Origin: Candidatus Nomurabacteria bacterium
Lineage (GTDB): Bacteria > Patescibacteriota > Patescibacteriia > HK-STAS-PATE-3
Length of the DNA stretch: 64,000 nucleotides
NCBI GenBank assembly: GCA_023898465.1
Contig: CP060223.1
Location: forward strand, 160,001 to 224,000
Reading direction: 5' to 3'
Shown: positions 4,470-30,838 of the stretch, piece after piece
How the letters are laid out: every line of letters begins with the position of its first letter
Numbering within the stretch: position 1 is the stretch's first letter
The notes under the pieces: model-generated
Database searches by the model: none
What the model was told of the DNA's origin: nothing
The model's input: only the letters and a program-made list of their open reading frames with translations
Made by a program: the position numbers and the translations under genes

Positions 4470-4476
4470 ATATATC

Positions 4477-12100: not shown

Positions 12101-12345
12101 AGCTTGGTCGTAACGTAACAGATGCGGTTGATCGTTTGAATAATATTCAGAGCAATGTAAAAGCTCCAGACTTAAAAAATGAAATAGGCGGTCTGGTAGA
12201 TAAATTGAAGACCCATCAGGAAAACGGAGAATCAATTCGCTTTAATCGAACCCCGGCTGATGAGCAGCGAGAATTCTTTAAGCGCAGTACAGAATTACTT
12301 GGTGAGGTGGGTAAGGTAATAAAAAAGTCAGTTAAAGAAAAGTAG
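9127..12345 (+). CDS. Polytopic membrane protein with a long hydrophilic coiled/charged C-terminal domain. It is VirB6/TrbL-like by architecture and context.
   Basis: It has a signal-like N-terminus plus at least six hydrophobic helices in the first ~300 aa, followed by ~750 aa of hydrophilic K/E-rich sequence. It lies upstream of the VirB3-like and VirB4 genes in the same operon. The VirB6 assignment is inference from topology. No diagnostic motif was verified. Confidence 0.45.
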   Translation: MKFFLRLTGRMREKRGLGPTVLVSVFIVAALVLFFPESRAYAASTGDKVALFFIENFMYPVVQFLANVLIVVINILVAVAQYNGFINAPAVEKGWVIVRDLSNMFFIVFLLIIAFGTIFKIEAYRYNRILGKLVIFAFLINFSKFVAGFWIDIGQVIMLTFVNGFKDAAAGNLASGLGLDKTLELSNSPLQNIDITSKALYGAIILALILLGIAVVVTLIITVLLLYRIVMLWILIVFSPLAFLTRIFPNTTKYSDQWWGEFNKNIIVGPVLAFFLWLSLTVIATSNGNLATDFQSVSTQETTGLLGTANEAGEGTGQTISAAITTIGESDRLLSYMITIGLLLGSLQAAQQLGAAGGRWAGSMSEKLKTGGLSAAGVLSGVAAARLALRGGKAGAERVGSTAWRTAVTKSKVGNRQILAPLTRKYWEGYAQRGAEQQQVLDRRMMARGRTMADIVRETKLYGGGGDLAVGTYIEDTERALINEGYNEKQKSLGKNPSSEKVVQEMWSAKAQKGEQGITSKNSGALLGARNGNWDDLNQMMFFNKELKSNIEKYGPDPDQIPADVKSKLLEEWGFSTDSAIDEWEDVVNESSKHMRVIMMNYLGLSRKYDPEYLAAQEAQKRGKNIHIMRREGEAGDAGAAKEYKEIMQKSQQQAMNEAKNAGIDDRNRLIALQWAGDEALSVGQHVEQRHGLFNEEEGYSYIGTLEKMADDSYGLLNKTESSKVMERMSPHAITPRYFDTETGEIDYNTDASEWSEIGKRMFKFFGKFTNREIGRMSGRVGEQIIGLDGVVGKKNVIFDAKGQFYEGEGTDEEKKARRAESQRRWEAMYSQDSLSAKKLYMKVFTGSADGFKDWDKGGQTIKGWTPPAPTEAEKAAVKKAEAEENTETANKATGEEKTSTSDTAQKDETKSPGGVVLTPGAQFKAEQEGEVKTSDRSSQTPSVEPSADEKAPYNREHMQASDSYGRLANSLTAYHDELPKSADELRTTISELGRNVTDAVDRLNNIQSNVKAPDLKNEIGGLVDKLKTHQENGESIRFNRTPADEQREFFKRSTELLGEVGKVIKKSVKEK

Positions 12346-13772: not shown

Positions 13773-14102
13773 ATGCGGTTGACTTTTGCATTTCCGAGAA
13801 ACATGAATACATGGAGCCTTATGCGGCGTTTAGGGTATAGTCCAGATCGCCGGACAGGCTTCCCAGCCCAGCGTTCCGCAGCTCAGGAATCTAGCTATCA
13901 ACGACGATTGGGTCGATTGGTATACCCCCGATTTCATGTGTACGTAAACCAGGACAGCTCCGATCTTCTTGTGCTCAATATTCACGTAGATATGAAGAAA
14001 ACAAGCTATGAGGGTAGTCACGCTCATTCAGGTGAGTATGATGGACCTTTATTAGAAGAGGAAGCAGCTCGAATTCAGCAATATATCAGCGCAAGCCGCT
14101 AG
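13773..14102 (+). CDS. Small hypothetical protein whose start is uncertain.
   Basis: A 109-aa ORF in an otherwise intergenic 513-nt gap. It has a non-random C-terminal segment (HVYVNQDSSDLLVLNIHVD...YEGSHAHSGEYDGPLLEEEAARIQQY) and no recognised family. It could be non-coding. Confidence 0.35.
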   Translation: MRLTFAFPRNMNTWSLMRRLGYSPDRRTGFPAQRSAAQESSYQRRLGRLVYPRFHVYVNQDSSDLLVLNIHVDMKKTSYEGSHAHSGEYDGPLLEEEAARIQQYISASR

Positions 14103-14268: not shown

Positions 14269-15606
14269 ATGATAGATCTCGCAACGATTAATGCCAGTAC
14301 GATTGCTCAGCCGAAAACGCTGGAAGCAGTACGTGCAGAAGTCGATGATGTTGTCTCGCTAGGTGATGTATCGCGGGCAGGGGTTTTGTTATCGTATTTA
14401 CAGCGACAACTTCCCCAATCTCCAAATGATCCAATACGTAACAATTATCAAGAAATACTTCAATCGCTTGAACGGCTTGTTGGAGAGGCAAATCCCGCGG
14501 ATGATGCGCTCATTTCAGAAGAACGTACTCGTGTAGCAGTAAGAGATTCTTCGGGCAAGGTACAGCTCTTTAGTCATGGTCGCTTCCAGAGTCCAGAAGA
14601 GCAAAAACAGCAATTGCGCGAGCGTCCTTCCACTCCTCCGAGCTTCCGGAAGAGCATTGGAAATGTACAAAATAGTACTGAATCGCGAGCCGCGCAAAAG
14701 TCAGTCCCTGTTTCCTTTGATGTTCCGGAGGATGAAGAAGAGATTCGAGAGCATACCAATCGACTTTCCGGACTGCGTTTAAATGATCAGCATAATTATG
14801 AGGCAATGGTGGAGAGTATTATCTCCCATCATCATTTAGAGTTCCCAGATGAGCAGCTAGCGAAACGTTTCAGCACTATTGCAATCTCACGTTTGAAGGG
14901 TATTCGTGATGACAAAGAGGCAAAAGAAATCTTTACTCGTTCGCCAAAGGTCGGTGGCATGGGATTGGCGCCGGAATTAGCCGATGCGGTGCTGCAGTCT
15001 TTGGAGTCAGGCGCTGAAGTGCTTGATGAAAGCTTGCCTGAGGTGCATCCTCAACAGAAAGCGCACGTTCCGACGCCTACACCTCCAGCACCTTCGCGAG
15101 TGCTGCCACATCTAGCAAATCAGCCTACCAAGGTGATGGCGCATCAGGCTATCCCTACGCCGCCTCGTACGCAAACACCAGCAGCAACATCATCTGAGTC
15201 ACGCAAAGTACTTCCTAAGCGTCAAACAGTGCAGGCGAGCGGTCGTCCAACTTTAGACGATATTAAATCTCCTTCGCGTCGACTGGTTGGTCCGGTTGAG
15301 GAGTTGCAGCACCTAAGTCTAGAGGATTTTCGTAATTGGGGATCTACTCCAGCGGATAGTGTACGAAAAGTGTATGAGAAAATTGCCGTGCTTGGACAAG
15401 AATCATTTGGCAAACGCATTGAGGGTGTACAAGCCTGGCGTCAGAGTCCGGTGCATCAACTTTACTTATCCATTAGTCGTGAGAGTTTAGAAAAGGGGAC
15501 GGATGTGAGTAAAGTGATTAGTGAGCGGACGCAGCAAAATAAAGCCTCCTTGAGTGAGGCAGAGTTTCATGCGGTAGTTGATTTAAATACTAAGCTTCGT
15601 TTCTAA
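14269..15606 (+). CDS. Hypothetical protein with a Pro-rich middle region.
   Basis: A 445-aa ORF with a Pro/Thr-rich low-complexity segment (PTPTPPAPSRVLPHLANQPTKVMAHQAIPTPPRTQTPAATSS) and no TM. Confidence 0.6.
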   Translation: MIDLATINASTIAQPKTLEAVRAEVDDVVSLGDVSRAGVLLSYLQRQLPQSPNDPIRNNYQEILQSLERLVGEANPADDALISEERTRVAVRDSSGKVQLFSHGRFQSPEEQKQQLRERPSTPPSFRKSIGNVQNSTESRAAQKSVPVSFDVPEDEEEIREHTNRLSGLRLNDQHNYEAMVESIISHHHLEFPDEQLAKRFSTIAISRLKGIRDDKEAKEIFTRSPKVGGMGLAPELADAVLQSLESGAEVLDESLPEVHPQQKAHVPTPTPPAPSRVLPHLANQPTKVMAHQAIPTPPRTQTPAATSSESRKVLPKRQTVQASGRPTLDDIKSPSRRLVGPVEELQHLSLEDFRNWGSTPADSVRKVYEKIAVLGQESFGKRIEGVQAWRQSPVHQLYLSISRESLEKGTDVSKVISERTQQNKASLSEAEFHAVVDLNTKLRF

Positions 15607-16118
15607 TGCAGTTTGTTGTACCTCAATTCATCGACGTAGAGGATAAAGTCATCGGGCCAATATCAGTGCGGCAGTTTATTCTGCTACTCGTTGGCGCTGG
15701 CATGATTTTCTTAGAGTACGAATTAATTTACCAGTTAAATAACAACATTTGGGTCTTTCTCTTTAGCGCAATTATTACTGGTTTGTTGGACATCGTTTTT
15801 GCCTTTGTGAAGGTGAACGGACGACCTTTTCATTTTTTTCTCCTCAACTTCTTAGTGACCATGCGTGATCCACGTTTACGTATCTGGAGTAAAGAAGTGA
15901 GCCTAAAGGATTTAAAGCGTGAACAGGCAAATGCAAATCCAGTTCAGACGGTAGTGGAGCCAACCAAAAAGTCGCTCACACCCTCAAAGTTGGCAATGCT
16001 TTCTTTGGTTGTTGATACTGGAGGAGCCTTTAAAGCTCCACAGAAGATTCGCGAGGGAAGTGTGAGCGTGAAGCGCGATGAGGCCCCCTCGTTAAGTGAT
16101 GATGAGTTTCGCAGTTAA
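15606..16118 (+). CDS. Small two-TM membrane protein, VirB3/PrgI-like by position.
   Basis: A 170-aa ORF with two hydrophobic helices near the N-terminus (FILLLVGAGMIFLEY...WVFLFSAIITGLLDIVFAF). It sits immediately upstream of the VirB4 genes, as in Gram-positive-type T4SS loci. Its start overlaps the previous gene's stop. Confidence 0.5.
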   Translation: MQFVVPQFIDVEDKVIGPISVRQFILLLVGAGMIFLEYELIYQLNNNIWVFLFSAIITGLLDIVFAFVKVNGRPFHFFLLNFLVTMRDPRLRIWSKEVSLKDLKREQANANPVQTVVEPTKKSLTPSKLAMLSLVVDTGGAFKAPQKIREGSVSVKRDEAPSLSDDEFRS

Positions 16119-16127
16119 TATATTGTT

Positions 16128-16829
16128 ATGGCAGCAAAAAAAATTCAGGACAACAAAAAGAAGCGATCAGTAACGCCAACCCAGCGTTATATCGATATTC
16201 TTGAAGTGAAGGATGATATTGTCGTTCTAAAAGATGGCACGATTCGAGCTGTCCTTTTAGTATCCTCAATTAACTTTGCCCTGAAGTCAGAAGAAGAACA
16301 GAATGCGGTGATCGCCAGCTATACCCAGTTCTTAAACTCTTTAGACTTCTCTATTCAAATCGTTATCCAGTCTCGCCGTTTAAATATTGATGACTACCTC
16401 GAGCGATTAAAGCAGAGTGAGCGAGCGCAACGTAACGAGCTCCTCCGCATGCAGACAAGAGAGTATCGAGAGTATATTGCCGAGCTGATAGATATTGCCG
16501 ACTTAATGGCGAAGCGTTTCTACGTTGTTGTGCCATTTATGCCGCACTCTGATAAACCAAAACGTTTCTTCTCGCGCATACTTGAGGCAGTATCGCCATC
16601 GACAGTTATTCACCTTAAACAGCAGCAGTTTCTCACTTATCGCAGCGAACTTATGAAGCGGGTTGATTATGTTATTGATGGCTTGAGCGCAGCTGGCTTA
16701 AAGGCGGTTATGCTTGATACGCAGAGTTTAATTGAATTGTATTACAATACCTACAATCCAGAATCAGTTGGCCAGCAAAAGTTTGCTGATCTCTCAAAGG
16801 TAAATGTAGAAGGAGGCGGCAATGCCTGA
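16128..16829 (+). CDS. VirB4-family N-terminal domain protein. This is the stand-alone N-terminal half of a split VirB4.
   Basis: A 233-aa ORF. The segment DDIVVLKDGTIRAVLLVSSINFALKSEEEQNAVIASYTQFLNSLDFSIQIVIQSRRLNIDDYL resembles the conserved N-terminal region of VirB4/TraC/PrgJ-type ATPases. It ends at a TGA that overlaps the start of the ATPase ORF. Confidence 0.55.
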   Translation: MAAKKIQDNKKKRSVTPTQRYIDILEVKDDIVVLKDGTIRAVLLVSSINFALKSEEEQNAVIASYTQFLNSLDFSIQIVIQSRRLNIDDYLERLKQSERAQRNELLRMQTREYREYIAELIDIADLMAKRFYVVVPFMPHSDKPKRFFSRILEAVSPSTVIHLKQQQFLTYRSELMKRVDYVIDGLSAAGLKAVMLDTQSLIELYYNTYNPESVGQQKFADLSKVNVEGGGNA

Positions 16830-18801
16830 TATTGATTTTTCCAAAGCAGCTGGCCAGACGCCTTCACCCTCGCCTTTACCAAAGTCAGAGCGGCAACGTC
16901 AGCAAGATGAGCGACTAGAGGCCGAGCAGGAGCGCGAACTACTTGAGGCTGAGCGGGTCTATCGAGCTGGAGTAGTTACTGTTCGCGATTTAATTGCTCC
17001 GGCGGCCATGAAAGTAGAGGCAGACTTCCTGCGATTGGGAAGTCAGTATGTCCGTACTCTCTTTGTTGTTTCATACCCGCGCTATATTACTGTTGGCTGG
17101 TTTGCGCCGATTATTAATTTCAATATCCCGCTAGATATCAGCATGTTCTTCTATCCGATTGAGTCAGCGGTTATTTTGAAGCAGTTGCGAAATAAGGTGG
17201 GTGTACTTGAAGCACAAATTATTTCCGATGCTGAGAAGGGCGCCCCGCGTGATCCAGTACGAGAGACAGCGCTTCGTGATATTGAAAAATTGCGAGATGA
17301 CTTAACGCAAGGTACAGAAAAGTTTTTTCAATTTGCGCTTTACGTAACCATTTACTCTTCGCGTAAAGACCACCTTGATTTACTGACAGAAAAGATCGAA
17401 TCAATTTTAGGAGGTCGATTAATTTACTCTAAGCGTGCCTTCTTCCAGGCTGAGCAAGGTTTCCACTCGACGCTTCCCCTAGGGAGTGATCAACTGCAGG
17501 TGACCTATAACATGAGTTCATCGCCGATTGCGTCGTCTTTCCCCTTCATTTCCTCTGATCTCACCTCAGATAATGGTATTCTCTACGGCATTAATCGCCA
17601 CAACAACAGCTTGATTCTCTTTGATCGTTTCAGCTTGCAGAACGCAAACTTTGTTGTCTTCGCCACGGCTGGAGCTGGTAAGAGCTACGCCATCAAGCTA
17701 GAGATTTTGCGTAGCTTAATGTTGGGCGCCGATGTCATCGTGGTAGATCCAGAAATGGAATATCGTCACTTATCTGATGCCGTTGGAGGGACCTACATTA
17801 ATATATCCCTGAATTCGGATTCAAAGATTAACCCCTTTGACCTACCGCGCCCGTCTCGCGAAGATGAAAAACCGGCTGATATTATTCGTTCCGCCGTTAT
17901 TACCTTAAAGTCTCTCATTCGTCTGATGTTGGGCGAGTTAAATCACGAAGAAGATTCTTTGATTGACCGGGCATTATTAGAGACGTACGCGAAGAAGGAT
18001 ATTACCCCAGATTCAGATTTGCAGAATATAGACCCGCCACTTATGAAGGATTTTGAAGAGGTCTTAGGCGATATGGTGGGAACAGAAGATCTCGTGCAGC
18101 GTTTGAAAAAATACACTGAAGGTACTTTTGCCGGCCTCTTTAACAGCGCTACAAATATTGAATTAAATAATCAGCTCGTAGTGTTCTCGGTACGTGATCT
18201 CGAGGATGAATTACGACCAATCGGAATTTCCACAATTGTCTCTTATATTTGGAATATTGTACGTTCTCAACTGAAGCGTCGCATCCTCGTGATTGATGAG
18301 GCGTGGTGGCTCATGCAACATGAGGACTCAGCTAAGTTTATTTATGCTTTAGTGAAGCGATGTCGTAAATATTATCTTGGAGTAACGACTATTACGCAGG
18401 ATGTGAATGACTTCTTGCGATCACCCTATGGCCAAGCGATTGTAAACAACTCCGCTTTACAGTTACTTATGAAGCAATCGCCAGCCGGTATTGATATCGT
18501 GCAGAAGACTTTCTTGCTCACTCAAGGTGAAAAGTATCTCTTACTTGAGTGTAATGTAGGTGAGGGTATTTTCTTCGCTGGAGCAAAACACGCGGCTATT
18601 AAAGTTGTAGCGAGTTATACCGAGGACCAAATTATTACCTCTGATCCACGCCAGCTCCTAGAGATCGAACAAGCTAAGGAAGAATTCGATGAAGCTTATG
18701 CGGCCGGTCAAACTGATTTGCCGCAAGATCAATTCGGCACAGCAAAAAATGAGCCACTCGAAGCAAAGCGTTCGCTAAGTGATACGGAGGGCTTAGGTTA
18801 G
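16822..18801 (+). CDS. virB4: VirB4/TrbE/CagE-family type IV secretion ATPase (C-terminal ATPase portion).
   Basis: Walker A is VVFATAGAGKSYAIK. Walker B and the DEAW motif are RILVIDEAWWLM. The N-terminal 60 aa form a disordered Q/E-rich linker. A perfect AGGAGG Shine-Dalgarno lies 5 nt upstream of the ATG. Confidence 0.85.
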   Translation: MPDIDFSKAAGQTPSPSPLPKSERQRQQDERLEAEQERELLEAERVYRAGVVTVRDLIAPAAMKVEADFLRLGSQYVRTLFVVSYPRYITVGWFAPIINFNIPLDISMFFYPIESAVILKQLRNKVGVLEAQIISDAEKGAPRDPVRETALRDIEKLRDDLTQGTEKFFQFALYVTIYSSRKDHLDLLTEKIESILGGRLIYSKRAFFQAEQGFHSTLPLGSDQLQVTYNMSSSPIASSFPFISSDLTSDNGILYGINRHNNSLILFDRFSLQNANFVVFATAGAGKSYAIKLEILRSLMLGADVIVVDPEMEYRHLSDAVGGTYINISLNSDSKINPFDLPRPSREDEKPADIIRSAVITLKSLIRLMLGELNHEEDSLIDRALLETYAKKDITPDSDLQNIDPPLMKDFEEVLGDMVGTEDLVQRLKKYTEGTFAGLFNSATNIELNNQLVVFSVRDLEDELRPIGISTIVSYIWNIVRSQLKRRILVIDEAWWLMQHEDSAKFIYALVKRCRKYYLGVTTITQDVNDFLRSPYGQAIVNNSALQLLMKQSPAGIDIVQKTFLLTQGEKYLLLECNVGEGIFFAGAKHAAIKVVASYTEDQIITSDPRQLLEIEQAKEEFDEAYAAGQTDLPQDQFGTAKNEPLEAKRSLSDTEGLG

Positions 18802-18817: not shown

Positions 18818-19396
18818 ATGCGTAGAATTTTTATCATCATCATCGCGCTTGTACTCTTGATTACCATTGCTGCCCTCATTCTCATCTGGATTGGTGGGGG
18901 AGACGCTTTTAATACCAACGAAAACACCAACACCACAACAAATACTAGCTTGCCGCTTGCAAATACAAATACCACAGTAAACAATAACGTGAATTCGAGT
19001 GTAGATGTTTCCCCTCAGAGCACCTTAATCGGTCAAGGGCGAAGTTTTGCCGAGCGATATGCCAGCTGGTCTCGAGCCGACTTTGATGAGTATATTAGTA
19101 GTCTCAGCGCCTGGATTACTCCTTCCTTCGCAACCGTGCTACAAACAGATAATGAAGCTCTTGATGCGGCAAAAACCGTTCAGTCGGTATCAAGTCGTGT
19201 ATTAACTAGCTCCTATAAGTCCTGGGAAGAGGATAGCTCAGCAAGTATTTCATTTGTGATGGATCGCACAGAACGACGCGACAATGAGCCAGATGCTCAC
19301 TATTATGAAACCTTGGTACTTGACTATACTTTCCTAAATGGAGAGTGGATGGTAAATGGAGCAAGTTGGCAGCCATCACGAGTCCAGCCTGAATAA
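18818..19396 (+). CDS. Membrane-anchored protein with an N/T-rich linker and a C-terminal globular domain (possible VirB8-like component).
   Basis: It has an N-terminal TM (IFIIIIALVLLITIAALILIWIG), a TNTNT-type low-complexity linker, then about 130 aa of globular sequence. The VirB8 analogy rests on size and topology only. Confidence 0.4.
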   Translation: MRRIFIIIIALVLLITIAALILIWIGGGDAFNTNENTNTTTNTSLPLANTNTTVNNNVNSSVDVSPQSTLIGQGRSFAERYASWSRADFDEYISSLSAWITPSFATVLQTDNEALDAAKTVQSVSSRVLTSSYKSWEEDSSASISFVMDRTERRDNEPDAHYYETLVLDYTFLNGEWMVNGASWQPSRVQPE

Positions 19397-19418: not shown

Positions 19419-20552
19419 ATGAGCTTTCGCTATAAAAAATTCGTTGTAGGAATGCTCACCGTTTTTCTCGGGTTTGGGGCGAGCTTTGTAGTCTCACCAG
19501 CTTCGGCACAGACAAGTTTACCCACCTGCTCATCAAGCGAGGTTTTAAATCAAATCGCTGATCACATGCAGCTCAATGTAGCGCTTCCAGGGATTACTAA
19601 CACAGTACAGTGCCTTTCGGAAACAGGTGACCAAGTAAAAACTATCCACGTTTTACAAGCAGAGTCAGGTCAGGAGCTTTCTACGTTTGTGAGAGGCTTC
19701 TATGTGTACTTTGTCTGGATTGTTGGTATTTTAGCAGTCGTGATGACTATGTACGCTGGCATTCAATGGTTAACTGCTGCTGGCAATACTTCACGGATTG
19801 AGAATGCTAAATCTACGATGAATGGTGCGCTTATCGGACTTGTATTGACGCTTACTTCATATGTTATTTTACAGGCAATTAATCCTGATTTAGTGACATT
19901 ACGAGTGCCTTTTGTTGAGCCGGTTGAAACAAGTGTTATTTCTGGGACATTTTGTCCACCAGCCCAGCAGACACAAGCTGAAAATTCAGGTCTGGTGTGC
20001 GGCGAACAACTCAAGTACTCGGATGCAAATGGTGCTGAGCACTTTTGTTTAAGTAGCGCCTGTCGAGCTGCTGATGGGGGAACTGATTGTCTGCCTTGCA
20101 CAGGGGACGGTGTTCCGTACGTGTTTTGTAAGGATCGTGGATACACCTGCGGTTACTACGACTCATTTATTTCAGTGGGGGCTACCATTACTAACTTAGT
20201 GCCAGATAAAGAACTAAAGTCGTTGAAGTTATATCGTACTAACCCAAATGCGCTTGAGGATGATAATGAATTACCATGGAAGCTTGTCAAAGAGTTTAAT
20301 GCAGATCAATTAACCGAAGGCGCGGTGCTGGAATTTACGAGCGATGATTCAGTCCCCCTTATCCAGTTTAAGTTTTCTGCGACATTCCGTGAAAGTTTTT
20401 GGAGTAATCGAGATTGTGACGCAGTAAATCCCGATGGATCAGTAAAACAACTATGGTTTGAATTACCCTATGCGCCTGGGTCAGTTGTTCACCAAGATTT
20501 TACTTTTGATATTCAAGGCATTTACAATAACAGCGAAGGCTGTATTGGTTAA
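19419..20552 (+). CDS. Secreted protein containing a conserved two-helix hydrophobic hairpin module and a Cys-rich C-terminal domain.
   Basis: A signal peptide (MSFRYKKFVVGMLTVFLGFGASFVVSPASAQ) is followed by the hairpin (RGFYVYFVWIVGILAVVMTMYAGIQWLTAAGNTSRIENAKSTMNGALIGLVLTLTSYVILQAINPDLVT) and a C-terminus with many Cys. The hairpin is about 90% identical at protein level to a segment of the 22446 gene. Confidence 0.7.
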   Translation: MSFRYKKFVVGMLTVFLGFGASFVVSPASAQTSLPTCSSSEVLNQIADHMQLNVALPGITNTVQCLSETGDQVKTIHVLQAESGQELSTFVRGFYVYFVWIVGILAVVMTMYAGIQWLTAAGNTSRIENAKSTMNGALIGLVLTLTSYVILQAINPDLVTLRVPFVEPVETSVISGTFCPPAQQTQAENSGLVCGEQLKYSDANGAEHFCLSSACRAADGGTDCLPCTGDGVPYVFCKDRGYTCGYYDSFISVGATITNLVPDKELKSLKLYRTNPNALEDDNELPWKLVKEFNADQLTEGAVLEFTSDDSVPLIQFKFSATFRESFWSNRDCDAVNPDGSVKQLWFELPYAPGSVVHQDFTFDIQGIYNNSEGCIG

Positions 20553-20563: not shown

Positions 20564-21814
20564 ATGGAATTACCCTCACTTTCACGAAATCGAGTACTAG
20601 CTATTTTTGGCTTCTTGGTCGTACTCTTCATTCTTGGCTTCTTGCTTTTCTGGGCTTTTTTCCGCACCGATACCGCCGTAAATGGTAATACCAACACTAC
20701 CTCAAATGGTCGTTTACCAAACACCAATGATGGAGTGAATCGATCAACTACAAATACAAATAGCGTGAGTGTTTTACCGATCACTAATACACAGATAGAG
20801 GTGCCAAGCGCCACTGCCGATGGCGGGAAAACCATTGCGCAATCTTTAGTTGACACCCCTTCGGCAAATATTGCCTTAGCCGGAAATGGTGTTGATCTGA
20901 TTTATTACGAGGAGCTGAGTGGGAAATTCTATCAGCTTGATAGAAATGGCGTGGAGCGAAAAGTATTGAACGACACTACTTTTAAAGGAGTCTCGGATGT
21001 AGCCTGGTCACCAAACCGACAACGTGCCGTGCTTACTTTCAAAGACGGTGCAAATATTGTGTATGATTTTTCCAAGCAGCAGCAGATATCACTACCAACC
21101 GAGCTGCAAGAATTTTCCTTTTCACCTGATTCCGCGCAAATTGCCGCAAAGTTTATTGGTCCGACAAAGGATGATAATTGGCTGGCCGTCGTAGATGTAA
21201 ATGGGGGAAACGTGCAGGTTGTTGAGCCTTTGCGGGATAAGGAAAATCAAGTGCAGGTAAACTGGTCTCCAAACTCGCAAATTGTCGCCACCTATCAGCA
21301 GTCAATTGATAGTGAACGTCAAGAAATTGTTCCTCTAGGTATCCAAGGCGAGAATTTTAAATCCTTCGAAGTTGAGGGGAGGGGTTTTGAAGGAAAGTGG
21401 GACCAAAGTGGAAATAGGCTTCTTTATAGCGTTTACAGTTCATCATCCTCAATGAATCCAGAGTTGTATATTGTGCAGGCGAGGGGCGATGCAATTGGTG
21501 AAAGTAATACACGACTAAATCTGCAAACCTGGCCAGATAAGTGTGCCTTTACCTCGAGTGCTACTAAGGTATATTGTGCGGTTCCGCAGGGTCTAGAAAG
21601 TGGTAGTGGTCTCTATCCAGAGCTAGCAAATAGCGTGCCATATCAATTTTATGAGATTAATCTCAGCACGGGTGTACAGCAGCTGATCGCGACGCCTACT
21701 AATACAACAGGTGAAACAAGGTACTCGGTGGGTAATGTATATTTGTCAGGCGCTGAGGATCAAATCTATTTCACTGATCAGGATGGTAAGATTCGTACAA
21801 TTAAGTTGCGATGA
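20564..21814 (+). CDS. Membrane-anchored TolB-like/WD40-like beta-propeller protein.
   Basis: It has an N-terminal TM, an N/T-rich linker, then repeated AWSPNRQRAVLTF, SFSPDSAQIAAKF and NWSPNSQIVATY blade-like motifs. Confidence 0.6.
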   Translation: MELPSLSRNRVLAIFGFLVVLFILGFLLFWAFFRTDTAVNGNTNTTSNGRLPNTNDGVNRSTTNTNSVSVLPITNTQIEVPSATADGGKTIAQSLVDTPSANIALAGNGVDLIYYEELSGKFYQLDRNGVERKVLNDTTFKGVSDVAWSPNRQRAVLTFKDGANIVYDFSKQQQISLPTELQEFSFSPDSAQIAAKFIGPTKDDNWLAVVDVNGGNVQVVEPLRDKENQVQVNWSPNSQIVATYQQSIDSERQEIVPLGIQGENFKSFEVEGRGFEGKWDQSGNRLLYSVYSSSSSMNPELYIVQARGDAIGESNTRLNLQTWPDKCAFTSSATKVYCAVPQGLESGSGLYPELANSVPYQFYEINLSTGVQQLIATPTNTTGETRYSVGNVYLSGAEDQIYFTDQDGKIRTIKLR

Positions 21815-22449
21815 TGGAGAATAAGAAGCATAATTGGCTCTTACCTTTATTAGTAGCGCTTGCTGCCATAGTCCTGATTGGGTTTACCTGGTGGACTATT
21901 AGCATCCCAACTACGCCGAATCTTTCCACGCGTTTCCCAACTGTACATTTAACTGATCCGGTTCGCGGCGGACAAGATGCGCAGGTGACTATTGTTGAGT
22001 ATAGCGACTTCCAATGTGAATTTTGTCAGACTTGGCATACGGTTGCTCAGCAGATACTAGATAAATATGGCGACAAGGTAAGATTGGTATGGAAAGACTT
22101 TCCCTTAACCGATCTACACCCAGAGGCAAAAGCAGCCGCAGAAGCAGCGCGTTGTGCTCAGCAGCAATTTGCTTTTTGGGAATACCACGATCAACTTTTT
22201 GCACGTCAGAGCGAGTTAGGCACAGCGCTTTATACTGATATTGCCCAAGACCTTGGCCTAGATGCACAAGCCTTTACTCGTTGCCGAGGTTCAGGTGATG
22301 CAGACACTTTCATTACGCAGAGTCAGCAGGAAGGCGTGACCCTTGGGGTAAGTGGCACGCCAACCATCTACGTTGGTCAATACATTTTCAAAGAAGCGCC
22401 AAGTTTTTCTACGGTTGATTCACTTGTTTCTTCATTACTGTCTGAATGA
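21811..22449 (+). CDS. dsbA: DsbA/BdbD-family thiol-disulfide oxidoreductase, membrane-anchored.
   Basis: The catalytic region is VEYSDFQCEFCQTW, with CEFC as the CxxC active site. The cis-Pro loop is GVSGTPTIYV. It has an N-terminal TM. It overlaps its upstream and downstream neighbours by 4 nt each (ATGA). Confidence 0.85.
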   Translation: MMENKKHNWLLPLLVALAAIVLIGFTWWTISIPTTPNLSTRFPTVHLTDPVRGGQDAQVTIVEYSDFQCEFCQTWHTVAQQILDKYGDKVRLVWKDFPLTDLHPEAKAAAEAARCAQQQFAFWEYHDQLFARQSELGTALYTDIAQDLGLDAQAFTRCRGSGDADTFITQSQQEGVTLGVSGTPTIYVGQYIFKEAPSFSTVDSLVSSLLSE

Positions 22450-23636
22450 AGCGAAGGGATCTTTTCTTTATCTTACTCGTGGGAATTGTTGGGGGAGCTT
22501 TTTTCTCTTTGCAGACGCCGACAGCCCAGGCTTCAGAATGTTGTTGTGTAGAAATTGAAGTAGTGGGAGGAGCACCGATACAGGACTGTAAGGTGTTGGA
22601 TGAATGTGCCTTACCTTATTTACCAACAGATCTTGACCCACTCCAATGTGCAGGTGTAAACACAGATATTGAGTCAAGCACTACAAGTGATCCGATTTAT
22701 TTTACGCCTAACGCACCTATCCCAGGAGTTTTTGAAGGACCACAAGAAGTAGACGGCACACTACTGAGTCGCTACATTCGCTCTTTCTATATTTATTTTG
22801 TTTGGATTGTTGGTATCTTAGCAGTAGTGATGACAATGTACGCTGGCATCCAATGGTTAACCGCGGCCGGTAATACTTCGCAAATAGAGAATGCTAAATC
22901 CACCATGAACGGAGCCCTGGTTGGTTTAGTGTTAACGCTGACCTCGTATATTATTTTACAGGCGATTAATCCAGCACTTGTGACGCTTCAAGACCTCTCT
23001 ATCTTTTCAGTTCCAAGTCAGTTGATAGGAGAAAAAGGAGAATCAAGTGCGCGGGGTGATACCGCCGCAGGTTTACCAGAATCAATACAGGATTTAAGTG
23101 GAGTGAGTAATGTCACCAAGTGGGACGACCTGATTCGAACGATAAGTAATGAGAATAACGTCAATCCATATTATGTGAAAGCAATCATGATGATTGAGTC
23201 GCGCGGAAATGCAAACGCGATTTCACCCGTTGGCGCATGCGGATTGATGCAGGTAATGCCGGCAAATGCGAATGGCGTATGCCTGGTCGGTGAAGCACGA
23301 GCAGAGGAGAATATTCGAGCTGGTGTAAATCTCATTGCTCGACTCATTCGAAATACCTGTCCGAGCTCAGCTAGTCTAAAAAGTGGTAAAACTGTGGAGT
23401 GTAATCCACAACAGACAAATTGCTATAACGGCAGCTGGCATTATGTGATTGCGGCATATAATGGAGGAGTGGGGGCTAATTGCTCCTCACAGACTTGTGC
23501 GCCGGCTGGACCAGGCTTAAAAGGTCAGACGTGGTGGGAATGCACAGATAATGGTGGCTTTGCGGAAACTAGAAATTATGTAAAATCGGTAGAAAAGATG
23601 TATACTATTGTGCAAGGTTGGGGGGGTCTGAACTAA
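22446..23636 (+). CDS. Lytic transglycosylase (SLT domain; VirB1-like cell-wall hydrolase) fused to the two-helix hairpin module.
   Basis: The SLT catalytic motif is IMMIESRGNANAISPVGACGLMQVMPANANG (ES...SPVGA.GLMQ.MP). It has a signal peptide and a Cys-rich N-domain (ECCCVEIEVVGG...). The hairpin FYIYFVWIVGILAVVMTMYAGIQWLTAAGNTSQIENAKSTMNGALVGLVLTLTSYIILQAINPALVT matches the 19419 gene. Confidence 0.85.
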   Translation: MKRRDLFFILLVGIVGGAFFSLQTPTAQASECCCVEIEVVGGAPIQDCKVLDECALPYLPTDLDPLQCAGVNTDIESSTTSDPIYFTPNAPIPGVFEGPQEVDGTLLSRYIRSFYIYFVWIVGILAVVMTMYAGIQWLTAAGNTSQIENAKSTMNGALVGLVLTLTSYIILQAINPALVTLQDLSIFSVPSQLIGEKGESSARGDTAAGLPESIQDLSGVSNVTKWDDLIRTISNENNVNPYYVKAIMMIESRGNANAISPVGACGLMQVMPANANGVCLVGEARAEENIRAGVNLIARLIRNTCPSSASLKSGKTVECNPQQTNCYNGSWHYVIAAYNGGVGANCSSQTCAPAGPGLKGQTWWECTDNGGFAETRNYVKSVEKMYTIVQGWGGLN

Positions 23637-23646: not shown

Positions 23647-24990
23647 ATGCGTAACAGCACCCTATTTGTTTGCTCAAAATGTGATGCGCAGTATAGTAGC
23701 TGGCAGGGCCGATGTGCCGAGTGTCAGGCTTGGGGTACTCTAGAGCCAGCCAATGCCAGCGCTAGCGATCAAATGGTTAGCGCAACAAAGCCGGCTGCAG
23801 CTACACCCTTGCATGAATTACGCGGCTCAAATGTTGAGCGATTTAGTACGGGCATAGCAGAATGTGATCGCGTATTAGGTGGCGGGATAGTTCCCGGAGC
23901 AATGTTATTACTGGCTGGCGCGCCGGGTATTGGAAAATCAACTTTAGTGTTGCAACTTGCTTCCCATATTGCGAAGGGCGGCAAAGTGCTCTATGTCTCG
24001 GGTGAGGAATCCGGGGAGCAAGTAAAATTACGTCTTGATCGGCTTGGTTTATCAGCGGAAAATATTGACTTCATCAGTAGCACCGTAATTGAGCCATGCT
24101 TGGCAGCAGCTGATAAACTGAAGCCTCGCCTCATTATTTTTGATTCAGTGCAGACACTCGCTTCGTCCAGTATTCCCTCCGAGGCTGGCACTGTTGGACA
24201 AGTGCGCACGGTTACGAACCTGGCGATGCACTATGCAAAAAATCATACCGTGGCCACTTTACTCATTGGTCACGTGACAAAAGAGGGGGTAACCGCTGGT
24301 CCAAAAACACTGGAGCACTTAGTAGATACTGTACTTTCCTTAGAAGGCGATAATAAGCATCAGTTTCGCTTATTGCGTAGCAGTAAAAATCGCTTTGGCA
24401 CAACCAATGAAGTTGGAGTATTCACGCTCGAGGAAAAAGGATTACGCGAAGTTGCTAATCCATCCGAGCGCTTCTTAGAAGAACGACAGCAGGGTAGTGG
24501 ATCAGTTGTCACAGCAACGATGGAGGGCACTCGAGCTTGGTTAGCAGAGATTCAGGCTCTAGTAAATCCCTCTGTCTTTGGCATGCCGCGACGCTCAGCA
24601 ACTGGAGTTGATGGACAACGTTTGCAGCTTATTCTAGCAGTTTTAACGAGACGAGCAGGTCTGCAATTGGGGACTCAAGATGTATTTGTGAATGTGGTTG
24701 GAGGTATTAGCGTGCGTGAGCCAGCCGCCGATCTCGCTATCGCACTCGCAGTAGCTTCTGCTTTTCGAAATGTTTCGTTTGATTCACACACGGCCATGCT
24801 GGGAGAGATAGGCTTAGGCGGTGAGGTGCGAAGTGTGGGACAAATCGAGCAGCGTGTAAGAGAGCTTGAGCGTATGGATTTTAAGAGAGTGCTGGTGAGT
24901 GCAAAGACCAAGATGAAAAAAAGTGGGATTGAAATTATCCCGGTTGCCACAGTAAAGGACGCCATTACTGCTCTTTTACCAAAAGCTTAG
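23647..24990 (+). CDS. radA: DNA repair protein RadA/Sms.
   Basis: An N-terminal C4 zinc finger (CSKCDAQYSSWQGRCAECQAWGT), Walker A GAPGIGKST, the KNRFG motif, and a Lon-like C-terminal domain. Confidence 0.9.
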   Translation: MRNSTLFVCSKCDAQYSSWQGRCAECQAWGTLEPANASASDQMVSATKPAAATPLHELRGSNVERFSTGIAECDRVLGGGIVPGAMLLLAGAPGIGKSTLVLQLASHIAKGGKVLYVSGEESGEQVKLRLDRLGLSAENIDFISSTVIEPCLAAADKLKPRLIIFDSVQTLASSSIPSEAGTVGQVRTVTNLAMHYAKNHTVATLLIGHVTKEGVTAGPKTLEHLVDTVLSLEGDNKHQFRLLRSSKNRFGTTNEVGVFTLEEKGLREVANPSERFLEERQQGSGSVVTATMEGTRAWLAEIQALVNPSVFGMPRRSATGVDGQRLQLILAVLTRRAGLQLGTQDVFVNVVGGISVREPAADLAIALAVASAFRNVSFDSHTAMLGEIGLGGEVRSVGQIEQRVRELERMDFKRVLVSAKTKMKKSGIEIIPVATVKDAITALLPKA

Positions 24991-25625: not shown

Positions 25626-27683
25626 TTACTCCCAGTGCACTGCATCATGCCGAATTGTTTCAAGTAACCCTGGCCACTTCTCCAGGTTGACGTCTTGTTG
25701 CAATAGCTCTTTCGCAATATCGCGAGTATGAGCAATAAGCTCAATATCTTGGAGTGACGCCATGCGAAAATCAGGTAAACCGGATTGTCGGCCTCCGCGT
25801 AATTCACCGGGCCCGCGGCGCTTCAGGTCTTCTTCAGCTACGGCAAAACCGCTCCTGGTTGCCGCGAATTTTTTCAGACGACCACTTGTTTCTGATTGAC
25901 TTAAGAGGAAGCAATACGATTGGGCGTCACCTCGGCCGACTCGTCCACGAAATTGATGCAGTTGCGCTAGACCAAAACGTTCAGCATTTTCAATCACCAT
26001 CACGCTTGCATTTGGCACATCTATGCCTACCTCGATGACTGCAGTTGCTACTAGGATGTCATAGTGATGATCAGCAAAGTCACGCATAATCTTTTCTTTT
26101 TCCTTGCTCCCAAGTTTGCCGTGCAGGAGTGCTACACGGAGTTTAGGGAAGACATGCTTTTGTAATTCTTCCGCCATATGCGTGGCAGCTTTGACGCCCA
26201 GCAAGTCGGATTCATCTATGAGCGCGGTAATGACAAAAGCTTGTCGACCTTGCGCAATTTGTTGTGCAATAAAGCCGTACATTTCCTTTCGCTTTGCCTC
26301 GGGAATGAGATGCGTTCTTATAGGCTTACGATTTTTTGGCATTTCGGTGATCGTGCTGATATCCAAATCGCTATAGAGAGTAAGCGCTAGGGTGCGGGGG
26401 ATCGGCGTTGCGGTCATGGAGAGAAAGTGTGGCTCTGTACTTAATGCTGTGCCAGTTTTTTCTTTAAGGAGTTTACGCTGAGCCACCCCGAAGCGATGCT
26501 GCTCGTCAATGATGATAAGTCCGAGACTTTGGAATTGAACATCTTCAACTAACAGGGCGTGAGTGCCAATCACCAACTGGATGCTTCCCTGGCCAATTTC
26601 TTTTTTGAGCTGCGATTTTTTAATAGCATCATTTCTATTTGCCTTTGCTTGGGATCCAGTTAAAAGAGCGATAGTTATTGACGTGTCCTGCAGGGTTTTT
26701 TGTATACTTTGGAAATGCTGCTCAGCCAGTACTTCAGTTGGTGCCATGATGGCAACTTGATGTTTGCTCCACATAGTGTTAAGAGCAGCCAAGATGGCTA
26801 CTAGGGTTTTTCCTGATCCGACATCACCCTGCAGTAAGCGATTCATTGGGTGGGCCTCGTTCATGCTCTGAATAATTTCCCAGGCTGCATTACGCTGTCC
26901 ATTGGTTAAGGTGAAGGGGAGCGTCGCTACAAAGTCTTTTGTTGCTTTTTCATGAAACTCAATCTTGGGTGCTGCAGCATGATGCAGTTGTGCGCGGTGC
27001 ATTTGATTATGTAACTGGAAACGCAGCAACTCATCAAAGGCAAGTCGAGCTCGCGCGGCCCTTAGTGCAGCATAGGTTTTTGGGAAGTGAATATCCCGTA
27101 CGGCAGTCTCGAGCTTTGGTAGCTTTTCGCTTTGACGGATTTTTGTTGGTAGAGGATCTTTAATCTCTTCCACGCAGGGTAGTGCCTGTTGCACCAAGTA
27201 GCGGAGGTACTTTGGCGTCAAACCATCAGTAACTGGATAGATAGGCACAATGCGTCCGGTATGCGTTTGTTCATCCTTCACTGGCTCGAAACTTGGATTG
27301 GTCATTTGCAGGCTGCCATCCTTTGCCAGGCTTGGTGTGCCGCTGACAATTATTTCCTCGTTATTCTCTAAACTCTTGGCGATATAGGCTTGATTAAACC
27401 AGACAAGCTTCAGATAACCACTCTCATCTTTCACAGCCGCTTCAGTAATACTCATCCGGCGACGGAAGCTACGACGGGCTCCAAGCAGCTCAACATGCAC
27501 ACGCACACTCGCTGCTATCCCAGCCTGCAAGCGAGAAATAGGGATGACTTGCGAAAAATCCTCATAGCGAAAAGGGTAATGCTGCAGCAGTTGGCGTACG
27601 TTTTGGATACCGAGACGTTGAAGCGCTTGAGCGATTTTTGGTCCTACTCCACGCAGTTGGGTAAGCGGTGTTTTGAGGTCCAT
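25626..27683 (-). CDS. recG: ATP-dependent DNA helicase RecG.
   Basis: An N-terminal wedge/HhH region (LRGVGPKIAQAL), helicase motif I GDVGSGKT, DEQH in IIDEQHRFG, TATPIPRT, and QFRGRVGRG. The protein is 685 aa. Confidence 0.9.
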   Translation of the reverse strand: MDLKTPLTQLRGVGPKIAQALQRLGIQNVRQLLQHYPFRYEDFSQVIPISRLQAGIAASVRVHVELLGARRSFRRRMSITEAAVKDESGYLKLVWFNQAYIAKSLENNEEIIVSGTPSLAKDGSLQMTNPSFEPVKDEQTHTGRIVPIYPVTDGLTPKYLRYLVQQALPCVEEIKDPLPTKIRQSEKLPKLETAVRDIHFPKTYAALRAARARLAFDELLRFQLHNQMHRAQLHHAAAPKIEFHEKATKDFVATLPFTLTNGQRNAAWEIIQSMNEAHPMNRLLQGDVGSGKTLVAILAALNTMWSKHQVAIMAPTEVLAEQHFQSIQKTLQDTSITIALLTGSQAKANRNDAIKKSQLKKEIGQGSIQLVIGTHALLVEDVQFQSLGLIIIDEQHRFGVAQRKLLKEKTGTALSTEPHFLSMTATPIPRTLALTLYSDLDISTITEMPKNRKPIRTHLIPEAKRKEMYGFIAQQIAQGRQAFVITALIDESDLLGVKAATHMAEELQKHVFPKLRVALLHGKLGSKEKEKIMRDFADHHYDILVATAVIEVGIDVPNASVMVIENAERFGLAQLHQFRGRVGRGDAQSYCFLLSQSETSGRLKKFAATRSGFAVAEEDLKRRGPGELRGGRQSGLPDFRMASLQDIELIAHTRDIAKELLQQDVNLEKWPGLLETIRHDAVHWE

Positions 27684-30042: not shown

Positions 30043-30119
30043 GTGGTGCGCCCGGCAGGGATCGAACCTACGACCTCAGGCTCCGCAAGCCTGCGCTCTA
30101 TCCAACTGAGCTACGGGCG
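30043..30119 (-). tRNA. tRNA-Arg (anticodon GCG) with encoded CCA.
   Basis: The reverse complement folds as a cloverleaf: acceptor GCGCCCG/CGGGCGC, D-arm GCTCAGTTGGATAGAGC, anticodon stem CAGGC/GCCTG with loop TTGCGGA, and T-arm GTAGGTTCGATCCCTGC. ACCA is at the 3' end. Confidence 0.75.
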
Positions 30120-30214
30120 CATATATAATGCGTTAGATTTTAATATTGTCATCGAGATGGCCGAGGGGCCAACTGCCCGCTCGCCATCGCTTGCGCTTAG
30201 GCGCATGCGGGCGA

Positions 30215-30783: not shown

Positions 30784-30838
30784 AGGTGTGTTGATTAATA
30801 TTGATGCGTAATGCTGTGCGATTCGTCCTGCGCTAGGG

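Follow-up and report, generated by a model that had tools for sequence, protein, structure and literature searches.

A VirB2-type pilin hairpin carried by two proteins of one Candidatus Nomurabacteria type IV secretion operon evolves in concert

Two genes within a chromosomal type IV secretion system (T4SS) operon of a Candidatus Nomurabacteria MAG, from the ultra-small bacteria of the Patescibacteria, encode proteins that differ in most of their length and yet share a nearly identical hydrophobic hairpin. What is this hairpin, and why are its two copies so alike? These questions were addressed in a 64,000-nucleotide stretch of the genome (the window), starting from a sequence-only reading that had taken the hairpin for a module shared between two secreted proteins. 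The proteins are called protein A and protein S here.

Comparison of the two 210-nt segments originally proposed as the module (19692-19901 and 22779-22988) showed that 64 of the 70 translated residues are identical (91.4%), in line with the figure of about 90% given before. Nucleotide identity had been put at about 85%, which proved too high. The measured value was 163 of 210 positions (77.6%), and the 47 differences are spread over codon positions 1, 2 and 3 as 8, 3 and 36. When the full proteins were aligned by BLASTP, a single significant segment was obtained (aa 80-162 of protein A and aa 100-182 of protein S, 68 of 83 residues identical, E = 3e-42), and nothing was significant beyond it. 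The homologous stretch is therefore about 83 aa long and the flanks of the two proteins are unrelated, as had been supposed. Only two copies were found in the window by tblastn and a module HMM. A weak third tblastn match (38921-39079, E = 0.07) falls within the ORF of an M48 peptidase and was dismissed as chance. The coordinates of both copies and of the surrounding operon are listed in Table 1.

Table 1. Features of the T4SS operon around the two hairpin genes (position 1 is the first letter of the window).
Feature	Position	Strand	Basis
Extended VirB6/TrbL-like polytopic membrane protein, 1072 aa	9127..12345	+	PF04610 TrbL, E = 4.2e-5, 23.8 bits, below the 25.9 cutoff
PrgI (VirB3-like)	15606..16118	+	PF12666, 35.5 bits (cutoff 27)
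TraC-like protein upstream of VirB4	16128..16829	+	Orthologues in L001-L003 with PF26593 TraC-like, 79-89% identical
VirB4-type ATPase, T4SS signature protein	16822..18801	+	NCBIfam NF045971 (CD1110 family), 352.6 bits (cutoff 325); P-loop_TraG, 105.9 bits
Membrane-anchored 192-aa protein with Asn/Thr-rich linker, between VirB4 and protein A	18818..19396	+	ORF; 36-41% identity in L001-L003 and L005
Protein A, 377 aa (NCBI H6760_00730)	19419..20552	+	PF18895 at aa 85-154, 40.6 bits; exact database match P0025
Hairpin module copy 1, protein A aa 80-162	19656..19904	+	BLASTP segment; encloses the earlier 19692-19901
Membrane-anchored β-propeller-like protein between the hairpin genes	20564..21814	+	Sub-threshold β-propeller Pfam matches only; same position in all related loci
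DsbA-like thioredoxin with N-terminal membrane segment, between the hairpin genes	21811..22449	+	Thioredoxin_4, 103.3 bits; DSBA, 64 bits
Protein S, 396 aa	22446..23636	+	PF18895, 35.2 bits; PF01464 SLT, 56.1 bits
Hairpin module copy 2, protein S aa 100-182	22743..22991	+	BLASTP segment; encloses the earlier 22779-22988
SLT catalytic domain of protein S, Pfam envelope aa 229-345	23130..23480	+	Pfam, motifs, fold

The two proteins share a layout. Each begins with a hydrophobic stretch resembling a signal peptide, which closes with A-x-A (ASAQ, AQAS) ahead of the mature part; signal peptides were assigned by eye and from hydropathy. A short cysteine-containing domain follows, with two cysteines in protein A and six in protein S, and the earlier description of a signal peptide and a small Cys-containing N-domain ahead of the module was thus borne out. 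Next come two hydrophobic helices on either side of TAAGNTS.IENAKSTMNG, and hydropathy profiles contain three hydrophobic segments per protein, the signal-like one and the two helices. Modelling of the hairpin with AlphaFold (AF2), which had been proposed as a check, returned two long helices joined by a 4-residue turn, at residues 86-119 and 124-154 of protein A and 106-139 and 144-174 of protein S. The polar turn and the helix-end motifs (AAGN, AK, NP) are conserved, and there are near-invariant Gly/Ala positions. All cysteines lie outside the hairpin and occur in even numbers (2+10 in protein A, 6+8 in protein S).

Profile searches place the module in a known family. Both full-length proteins exceed the gathering threshold (26.6 bits) of PF18895, 'Type IV secretion system pilin', and so do the modules when searched in isolation (40.0 and 38.4 bits). 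On this evidence the module of the window is a VirB2-type T4SS pilin hairpin, used twice in one operon. The likeness to VirB2/TrbC-type pilins that the sequence-only reading had noted holds at this level, but direct comparisons with classical VirB2/TrbC gave nothing significant for the window proteins. Neither protein matches PF04956, the classical VirB2/TrbC family, at E <= 0.1, although some relatives do: the L009 locus gives E = 1e-4 (below threshold), and 11 of the 132 relatives covered by the Pfam scan match at E < 1e-3. When a profile built from 31 diverse hairpins was run against the sequences of the whole PDB, it returned no solved pilin and only two chance membrane-protein matches (E > 1). 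An hhalign comparison with A. tumefaciens VirB2, the sequence of which was checked against 8CUE, gave E = 0.099 over 17 columns only and is not significant. The window proteins score 20.9-24.6 bits against NCBIfam NF045849 (Mbov_0395 pilin-like conjugal transfer protein of Mycoplasma ICEs) and do not reach its cutoff of 40; 28 of the 31 diverse hairpins match it below cutoff at E <= 0.01 (best 7.7e-9). By profile comparison, these matches indicate a related family and not membership.

In size the window proteins depart from small stand-alone pilins (~100-160 aa), and this is typical of their kin: of the 148 single-hairpin proteins nearest to them, 139 continue for 150 aa or more beyond the hairpin on its C-terminal side. 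The hairpin-SLT architecture was found in 26 database proteins. In other relatives the hairpin is joined to M15/VanY, M23, NlpC/P60, 3D or unknown C-domains, and some chains carry 2-7 hairpins in tandem, one of them with four hairpins followed by an SLT domain. The same family also gives stand-alone small pilins in arrays (L013).

The genomic setting ties the module to secretion, and the proposed association with a T4SS was upheld. In the window and in nine related loci, the hairpin genes lie beside T4SS core genes (VirB4, VirB3/PrgI, VirB6). The module adjoins VirB4 in every related locus with enough flanking sequence, including more distant ones, and the order of genes in the operon is identical in four other genomes. 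An equivalent of the VirB6/TrbL-like gene, of ~1065 aa, heads loci L001 and L002. The DsbA-like gene, the stop of which overlaps the start of protein S, is kept at the same position in L001, L002, L003, L005, L008 and L009. The 192-aa protein upstream of protein A matched no family in Pfam or NCBIfam. Scanning of the window genes revealed neither a relaxase nor a coupling protein. A search for a small 'major' pilin in the locus, by module HMM over the window and inspection of the neighbours, found none: a 109-aa ORF (13773-14102) is soluble and basic without a hairpin, and the 467-, 445- and 233-aa neighbours are all soluble.

The identification of the 22446 gene as an SLT lytic transglycosylase was confirmed (threshold for PF01464 21.3 bits, E = 3.4e-15). 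From the signal-like segment, protein S proceeds through its 6-Cys ectodomain, the hairpin and a linker to a family-1 lytic transglycosylase domain. In 23 protein S orthologues E251-S252, G266..Q269 and Y338-N339-G340-G341 are invariant (motifs ES, GLMQ and AYNGG). The AF2 model of the SLT domain has a pLDDT of 93-98, and Foldseek matched it to LtgA, Slt, MltF, MltC and MltE (best E = 2e-5, with 34 matches at E <= 1e-3). Judged from profiles, motifs and the model, protein S joins a pilin hairpin and a family-1 lytic transglycosylase in one chain, and for the enzyme we predict a VirB1-type role. In protein A, a signal-like segment (aa 1-31), a small 2-Cys ectodomain and the hairpin lead into a Cys-rich (10 Cys), β-rich C-domain, modelled by AF2 with a pLDDT of 80-90. 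No PDB fold match was found for this model at E < 0.01. The A-type C-domain is fast-evolving, with 26-35% identity where VirB4 retains 79-88%, and it may be an adhesin or tip-type domain.

Why, then, are the two hairpins so similar? The earlier suggestion of a cassette shuffled between proteins holds on a deep timescale, given the varied domains joined to the hairpin in relatives, but recent shuffling is not the source of the similarity within the genome. Hairpins of the same genome are 80-91% identical (90% in the distant L009 pair), and against orthologues of other lineages identity is 64-83%, or ~50% for distant ones. In a quartet of the window with L001, L002 and L003, informative amino acid sites favoured grouping by genome over grouping by gene by 32:2 in helix 1 and the loop and by 15:5 in helix 2; the corresponding nucleotide counts, 104:11:9 and 33:17:12, also favoured grouping by genome. 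Where the hairpins group in this way, the flanking domains are orthologous across lineages. The end of helix 2 in copy 2 of the window (SYIILQAINP) has A-type residues, where other S-type orthologues have SF..LR.INP. Identical runs of 52 nt in L001 and 49 nt in L003 were detected (permutation p < 1e-4) and read as recent gene-conversion tracts. No identical run longer than the number of differences would predict was found in L002, L005, L008, L009, L010, L012 or the window itself, where the longest run is 14 nt (p = 0.66). The window pair has dN = 0.08 and dS ~1.85, with dN/dS ~0.04 and synonymous sites nearly saturated; given this dS and the short longest run, recent duplication or conversion in the window was rejected. 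The test covered the hairpin pairs of nine genomes, and for two of these a close relative was also in the set. It was shown that the two hairpins evolve in concert, through strong purifying selection and recurrent gene conversion, the latter with recent tracts in L001 and L003. Both genes have long stood in this syntenic arrangement, and their hairpins are homogenised, not recently shuffled. This concerted evolution is the new part of the finding; databases already contain both the domain and the architecture.

The same data bear on whether the similarity could be due to chance, to a generic pair of transmembrane (TM) helices in low-complexity hydrophobic sequence, or to mis-assembly or a recent duplication. 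We consider any of these extremely improbable. Some multi-hairpin relatives do weakly match the Cyt_bd_oxida_II, NicO and DctQ Pfam families. However, the BLASTP score and the specific PF18895 match speak against chance, and with 47 nucleotide differences and so high a dS, the copies can be neither a recent duplicate nor the product of a collapsed assembly. Further, a search for the module in related genomes recovered the gene pair in independent NCBI and Logan assemblies. The sequence-only reading had allowed that the module might be a generic TM pair of unrelated transporters; what was found instead is a pilin-family match that stands consistently next to VirB4.

With this in mind, we think it fairly probable that the two proteins share the hairpin as a module for assembly or targeting, which links both ectodomains to the T4SS. 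In the literature, PF18895 proteins count as the VirB2-like pilins of Patescibacteria (PMC12102498), and in Southlakia the predicted pilin genes of the T4SS cluster are essential (PMC10633639). For PrgF, a VirB2-like protein of a Gram-positive T4SS, an essential part in conjugation has been reported, and the protein has been modelled as a pilus (bioRxiv 10.64898/2025.12.18.695078). We infer the topology, the co-assembly, any polymerisation and the role of the protein A C-domain as follows. A Sec-type signal peptide would export each protein, leaving the small N-domain and the large C-domain outside the cell and the hairpin in the membrane. The polar turn (TAAGN..IENAK) would then be on the cytoplasmic side, as in a VirB2 pilin that has yet to be extracted. 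The SLT domain of protein S must be extracytoplasmic because it needs to reach peptidoglycan. The operon's DsbA-like enzyme would oxidise the ectodomain cysteines, protein S would supply a VirB1-type lytic transglycosylase and protein A a variable Cys-rich β domain. If the common hairpin is recognised and assembled by the VirB4/VirB6/VirB3 machinery, both ectodomains would be tied to the same structure, either a pilus or stalk or a base in the membrane, and the two hairpins would have to stay compatible for co-assembly to work.

An alternative reading is that the hairpin is a plain membrane anchor, comparable to the N-terminal TM segment of PrgK, TraG(pIP501) and CwlT. It would only tether two extracytoplasmic proteins, never leaving the membrane or polymerising, and the similarity of the copies would be a by-product of neutral gene conversion. 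The enzymes fused to the hairpin (SLT, M15/VanY, M23, NlpC/P60, 3D) are the set known from membrane-anchored Gram-positive T4SS hydrolases (PMC12102498). The window proteins are much larger than pilins and have no significant similarity to solved ones. The conversion tracts show that homogenisation is mechanistic, and gene conversion can homogenise paralogues without selection for co-assembly. Nevertheless, the low dN/dS reflects conservation far tighter than a generic anchor would lead one to expect, and the polar turn and helix-end motifs are conserved and Gly/Ala positions near-invariant. The small pilins of the L013 array come from the same family, and tandem multi-hairpin chains make little sense for an anchor. 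We regard a plain anchor as an unlikely explanation.

If the hairpin is an assembly module, as we favour, does it form a filament? The multi-hairpin chains hint at hairpin-hairpin assembly. Against a filament, each protein has three to four times the size of a classical pilin, a 200-aa domain on each subunit would crowd a VirB2-type filament, and the locus yielded no small 'major' pilin from which one would mainly be built. This crowding also weighs on the idea of a pilus-mounted weapon, in which the hairpin would polymerise into or cap a T4SS pilus and carry the lytic transglycosylase (a peptidase in other lineages) and the adhesin-like domain outward, the enzyme serving to breach the wall of a host bacterium instead of the producer's own. 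Both termini of VirB2-type pili face outward (bioRxiv 10.64898/2025.12.18.695078), so fused ectodomains would be displayed, and the fast evolution of the A-type C-domain relative to VirB4 fits a host-contact surface. A cultured relative depends on its T4SS for epibiotic growth (PMC10633639), and the genes scanned here include no relaxase or coupling protein. However, VirB1-type enzymes normally remodel the producer's own wall, and we consider this weapon improbable. Equally doubtful is its most specific form, in which the fused hairpins would be the sole VirB2-like elements of this Paceibacteria-type T4SS and would co-polymerise into, or cap, a short pilus or stalk bearing a peptidoglycan cutter and a variable adhesin that drill the host wall, with conversion selected for lattice compatibility.

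In the one cultured species of Patescibacteria tested, epibiotic growth requires the T4SS, and the presence of VirB2-like pilins sets the T4SSs of this phylum apart among monoderm systems. In a large branch of Patescibacteria, if the assembly module that we favour is correct, the 'pilin' hairpin would serve to link ectodomains, the system's cell-wall hydrolase among them, to the machine and would not be a small stand-alone subunit. The concerted evolution of the hairpins of one operon suggests that both are handled by the same assembly step. A caution for surveys also follows, namely that VirB1 and VirB2 can be one gene; the observation that most genomes with VirB2 lack VirB1 may thus partly reflect how hits are scored. 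The sub-threshold link to Mycoplasma ICEs suggests, at the level of profiles, that these pilins came with monoderm-type machinery and were not borrowed from diderm systems. Basic classification is unchanged, since this is a known family with a modestly new variant of architecture.

Similar to the window proteins, the VirB2-like pilins of Southlakia epibionticum and Nanosynbacter lyticus (PMC12102498, PMC10633639) belong to PF18895. They have the same chromosomal, relaxase-less, MPF-FATA-like T4SS context near virB4, and a two-helix hairpin after a signal peptide. The published arrays hold 2-11 pilin genes, in tandem or one non-pilin gene apart, with a mean identity of ~25% and a maximum of 54%. 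In contrast, the window has only two hairpins, each inside a protein of ~380-400 aa with large ectodomains. These are two non-pilin genes apart and 91% identical, and the copies are homogenised by gene conversion in related genomes. We found no mention of fusion to a lytic transglycosylase in Quinonero-Coronel et al. 2025 (PMC12102498) or Wang et al. 2023 (PMC10633639). PrgF of Enterococcus pCF10 (ter Beek et al. 2025, bioRxiv 10.64898/2025.12.18.695078) also belongs to a monoderm T4SS and has a two-TM hairpin with a short polar/charged loop. It was modelled to assemble on a VirB6-like pentamer, within a type of machinery shared with the window (PrgI, CD1110-type VirB4). PrgF is a small stand-alone protein, unlike the window proteins, and the likeness noted here is one of layout and machinery; the nearest monoderm match found for the window hairpin is the Mycoplasma ICE protein NF045849, below threshold.

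Protein S shares with VirB1-type hydrolases (A. tumefaciens VirB1, PrgK, TraG of pIP501 and CwlT) the SLT family-1 domain, the ES, GLMQ and AYNGG motifs, a T4SS operon and a predicted extracytoplasmic membrane tether. In protein S, however, a hairpin of the pilin family takes the place of the single N-terminal TM helix as tether, with a signal peptide and a Cys-rich ectodomain ahead of it, and the protein has no second CHAP or NlpC/P60 domain. Classical VirB2/TrbC/TraA pilins (PF04956; T-pilus 8CUE/8EXH) have in common with the window proteins a signal peptide, two hydrophobic helices, a short loop and association with VirB4, VirB6 and VirB3. They differ in that PF04956 is unmatched, hhalign is not significant and the window proteins have large extra parts at both termini. 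Concerted evolution by gene conversion is known for multicopy surface and secretion genes, in which paralogous segments are more alike than orthologues and identical tracts have sharp borders. Here conversion stays within a domain of ~80 codons, the only homologous part of two genes that lie 3 kb apart, and it homogenises its targets, in contrast to the diversifying antigenic variation of the pilE/pilS type.

The two-helix hairpin is common to protein A and protein S, two secreted proteins that had been described as otherwise unrelated. The translated 70-aa modules (19692-19901 and 22779-22988) are identical at 64/70 residues (91%), in line with the approximately 90% given by the sequence-only reading. 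Its nucleotide figure of about 85% is corrected to 78% (163/210), and third codon positions account for 36 of the 47 differences. BLASTP of the full-length proteins aligned residues 80-162 of A with 100-182 of S (68/83 identical, E = 3e-42) and returned no second significant segment. The homologous stretch is thus about 83 codons long (19656-19904 and 22743-22991); outside it the proteins are indeed unrelated. Chance or artefact is excluded as the source of the similarity. Neither tblastn nor a purpose-built module HMM found a further hairpin copy in the 64-kb window. Both proteins begin with a hydrophobic signal-like segment closed by A-x-A, followed by a short Cys-containing domain, the hairpin and a large C-terminal region, just as a signal peptide and Cys-containing N-domain had been proposed.

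The earlier likening of the module to T4SS pilins is upheld by Pfam PF18895 'Type IV secretion system pilin', which both copies match above its gathering threshold of 26.6 bits (protein A, 40.6 bits; protein S, 35.2 bits). This family and PF04956 were used to call VirB2-like pilins in 3,035 Patescibacteria genomes (Quinonero-Coronel et al. 2025, PMC12102498). Exact database matches showed that protein A is H6760_00730, annotated hypothetical, and that protein S is annotated 'transglycosylase SLT domain-containing protein'; close relatives carry the NCBI name 'pilin'. Judged from sequence matches, the hairpin family is very large: phmmer queried 1.84 billion representative proteins with one 70-aa module and gave 17,787 matches at E <= 1e-3, of which 1,272 reached E <= 1e-10. 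A Pfam scan gave no PF04956 match in either protein, a 31-sequence hairpin profile found no pilin among PDB sequences, and hhalign of the hairpin against A. tumefaciens VirB2 was not significant. Some relatives reach PF04956 (L009, a related T4SS locus from another genome, at E = 1e-4; 11/132 at E < 1e-3). Below cutoff, 28 of 31 diverse hairpins matched NF045849, the NCBIfam model of a Mycoplasma ICE 'pilin-like conjugal transfer protein'. A second Mycoplasma ICE family, the ATPase family NF045975, is matched by the VirB4 of the window. These two Mycoplasma matches suggest that the hairpin pilin arrived with monoderm-type machinery and not from a diderm T4SS.

Both genes belong to a single tightly packed string on the + strand (33-24990). 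The giant Ig/fn3 ORFs lie directly upstream of the VirB6-like gene and, together with more fn3-like ORFs at 41883-48681, probably encode surface or adhesin proteins. The 109-aa ORF has no family match and is kept in place in the related loci L001, L002 and L003 (108, 98 and 109 aa). Neither a relaxase nor a coupling protein turned up in those window genes that were scanned, in agreement with published Patescibacteria T4SSs (PMC12102498; PMC10633639). The gene order, with the hairpin genes flanking the β-propeller and DsbA genes, recurs in L001, L002, L003 and L005 and more loosely in L008, L009, L010 and L012; VirB4 adjoins the hairpin genes in every related locus where the contig extends far enough. 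Linkage of the operon to recombination genes is also conserved, with radA directly 3′ of the hairpin-hydrolase gene in all related loci reaching there and recG nearby (L001, L002, L003, L005, L009, L011). The L002/L007 contig (CAZWTD010000015.1) is titled 'uncultured Gammaproteobacteria bacterium' yet bears a T4SS locus of Patescibacteria type, a sign that the MAG is mislabelled or mis-binned; its VirB4 is split into two calls (522 + 110 aa), implying a frameshift or assembly error. A complete-looking type IV pilus locus (54839-63168) shares the window with the T4SS.

Features of the window around the T4SS operon and the type IV pilus locus
Feature	Position	Strand	Remarks
Two giant Ig/fn3 proteins (probably surface)	33-9123	+	1478 and 1563 aa; Big_7, fn3, PhoD_N-like Ig-type domains
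Extended VirB6/TrbL-like protein	9127-12345	+	slightly under threshold
Three soluble proteins	between VirB6/TrbL-like and PrgI genes	+	
Small ORF	13773-14102	+	one of the three soluble proteins above; 109 aa, basic; within T4SS operon, flanked by the other two
PrgI/VirB3-like	15606-16118	+	
TraC-like protein	16128-16829	+	
VirB4, CD1110 family	16822-18801	+	above NCBIfam cutoff
Small anchored protein	between VirB4 and protein A genes	+	
Protein A	19419-20552	+	
Anchored β-propeller-like protein	between protein A and DsbA-like genes	+	
DsbA-like thioredoxin	21811-22449	+	
Protein S	22446-23636	+	
radA	23647-24990	+	directly after protein S gene
recG	25626-27683	-	
tRNA Arg-GCG	30044-30120	-	downstream of T4SS locus
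tRNA Ser-TGA	30836-30926	-	downstream of T4SS locus
tRNA Ser-GCT	33595-33684	-	downstream of T4SS locus
PilM	within 54839-63168		type IV pilus locus
Response regulator	within 54839-63168		type IV pilus locus
PilB-type ATPase with MshEN domain	58203-59984		type IV pilus locus
PilT-like ATPase	60410-61498		type IV pilus locus
PilC/T2SSF	61505-62713		type IV pilus locus
Type IV pilin	62854-63168		prepilin motif KKGFTLIELLVV

The assignment of protein S to the SLT lytic transglycosylases held. Its SLT domain (PF01464) scores 56.1 bits, and the family-1 motifs E251-S252, G266..Q269 and Y338-N339-G340-G341 are invariant in 23 orthologues. In the AF2 model the hairpin is confident (pLDDT 81-88) and the catalytic domain very confident (93-98), the latter matching LtgA, Slt, MltF, MltC and MltE in structure. 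Based on the domain, motifs and modelled fold, we predict that protein S is the system's VirB1-type enzyme with a pilin-hairpin tether. In the AF2 model of protein A the hairpin is seen again (helices at 86-119 and at 124-154), followed by a β-rich C-domain with ten cysteines (pLDDT 80-90), for which no convincing PDB fold match was found. This domain is only 26-35% identical across genomes in which VirB4 is 79-88% identical, which we interpret as rapid evolution of an exposed surface. The hairpin itself holds no cysteines; on its two sides protein A has 2+10 and protein S 6+8, even numbers throughout. A cleaved signal peptide followed by two membrane helices would leave both flanking domains of each protein outside the cell, where the SLT domain must be and where the operon's DsbA-like enzyme can act.

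The sequence-only reading had regarded the module as a cassette shuffled between T4SS-associated proteins. This stands on a deep timescale, since the hairpin is joined to varied domains and forms tandem chains. Among the proteins returned for protein S, 26 combine PF18895 with PF01464; other hairpins accompany VanY/M15 (database proteins P0041 and P0061, and L009), NlpC/P60 (P0033), M23, M15_4 or 3D. A single hairpin is present in 148 of the 192 nearest module-bearing proteins (medians of 73 aa before and 216 aa after it), with at least 150 aa following in 139/148. The other 44 carry two to seven tandem hairpins per chain; P0069 has six, and P0075 four and then an SLT domain. Linkers are about 30-40 aa in these tandem relatives, which also include P0073, P0074, P0076 and P0194. 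In published Patescibacteria pilin-gene arrays, mutual identity averages ~25% and peaks at 54% (PMC12102498). In Candidatus Levyibacteriota (L013:1721-3537), four small stand-alone pilins (131-160 aa) form an array with a VirB4-like gene ~5 kb downstream of it; the closest neighbours among the four are 60-80% identical in the hairpin, against that 54% maximum for whole proteins.

Within the window, recent shuffling does not account for the 91% identity. In genomes with clearly orthologous flanking domains, the paired hairpins are as similar as orthologues or more so: 91% in the window, 81, 80, 83 and 83% in L001, L002, L003 and L005, compared with 64-83% between orthologues across lineages. 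Among distant lineages the contrast is marked: the L009 pair, whose enzyme is an M15 peptidase and not SLT, is 90% identical mutually and at most 54% to anything else. Informative quartet sites (window, L001, L002, L003) group by genome over gene at 32:2 (aa) and 104:11 (nt) in helix 1 plus loop, and at 15:5 and 33:17 in helix 2. Compared codon by codon, the pairs of L001 and L003 show long unchanged stretches, with identical runs of 52 nt and 49 nt respectively (permutation p < 1e-4 each), that give way sharply to synonymous differences, a signature of recent gene conversion. No recent tract is present in the window pair (longest run 14 nt, p = 0.66), with dN 0.08 and dS ~1.85; its identity is thus old homogenisation since kept by strong purifying selection. 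The helix-2 end of the window's protein S (SYIILQAINP) has A-type residues, whereas other S-type orthologues have SF..LR.INP, which points to A-to-S conversion over the entire module in this lineage.

With this in mind, we considered what the shared hairpin might do. If it were a plain membrane anchor, its similarity would be a neutral by-product of the conversion just described; we regard this main rival as unlikely. We lean towards a VirB2-type element that the T4SS core would recognise and assemble, so that a common hairpin would put the cell-wall-cutting enzyme and the variable surface domain on one structure. Family membership, operon context and topology argue for this shared assembly. 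So do the strong sequence conservation, which includes polar motifs at the turn, the relatives with hairpins in tandem and the concerted evolution of the two copies. In a bolder version, the hydrolase and an adhesin would ride on a pilus and be directed at the host's wall; this seems improbable.

Databases already contain the hairpin domain and its combination with SLT. In the literature treating these pilins, VirB1 homologues are reported separately from pilins and no mention of a hairpin-hydrolase fusion was found (PMC12102498; PMC10633639); nor did we find 'poly-pilins' of two to seven tandem hairpins described there. Likewise, we found no published description of a branch made up of large hairpin-plus-ectodomain proteins, of an operon's VirB1-type enzyme as such a protein, or of concerted evolution of an operon's two hairpins by gene conversion. 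These points are relevant to T4SS and CPR specialists. In assembled pili, VirB2 termini point outward, and a published model places the VirB2-like PrgF of a Gram-positive system on a VirB6-like pentamer (bioRxiv 10.64898/2025.12.18.695078).
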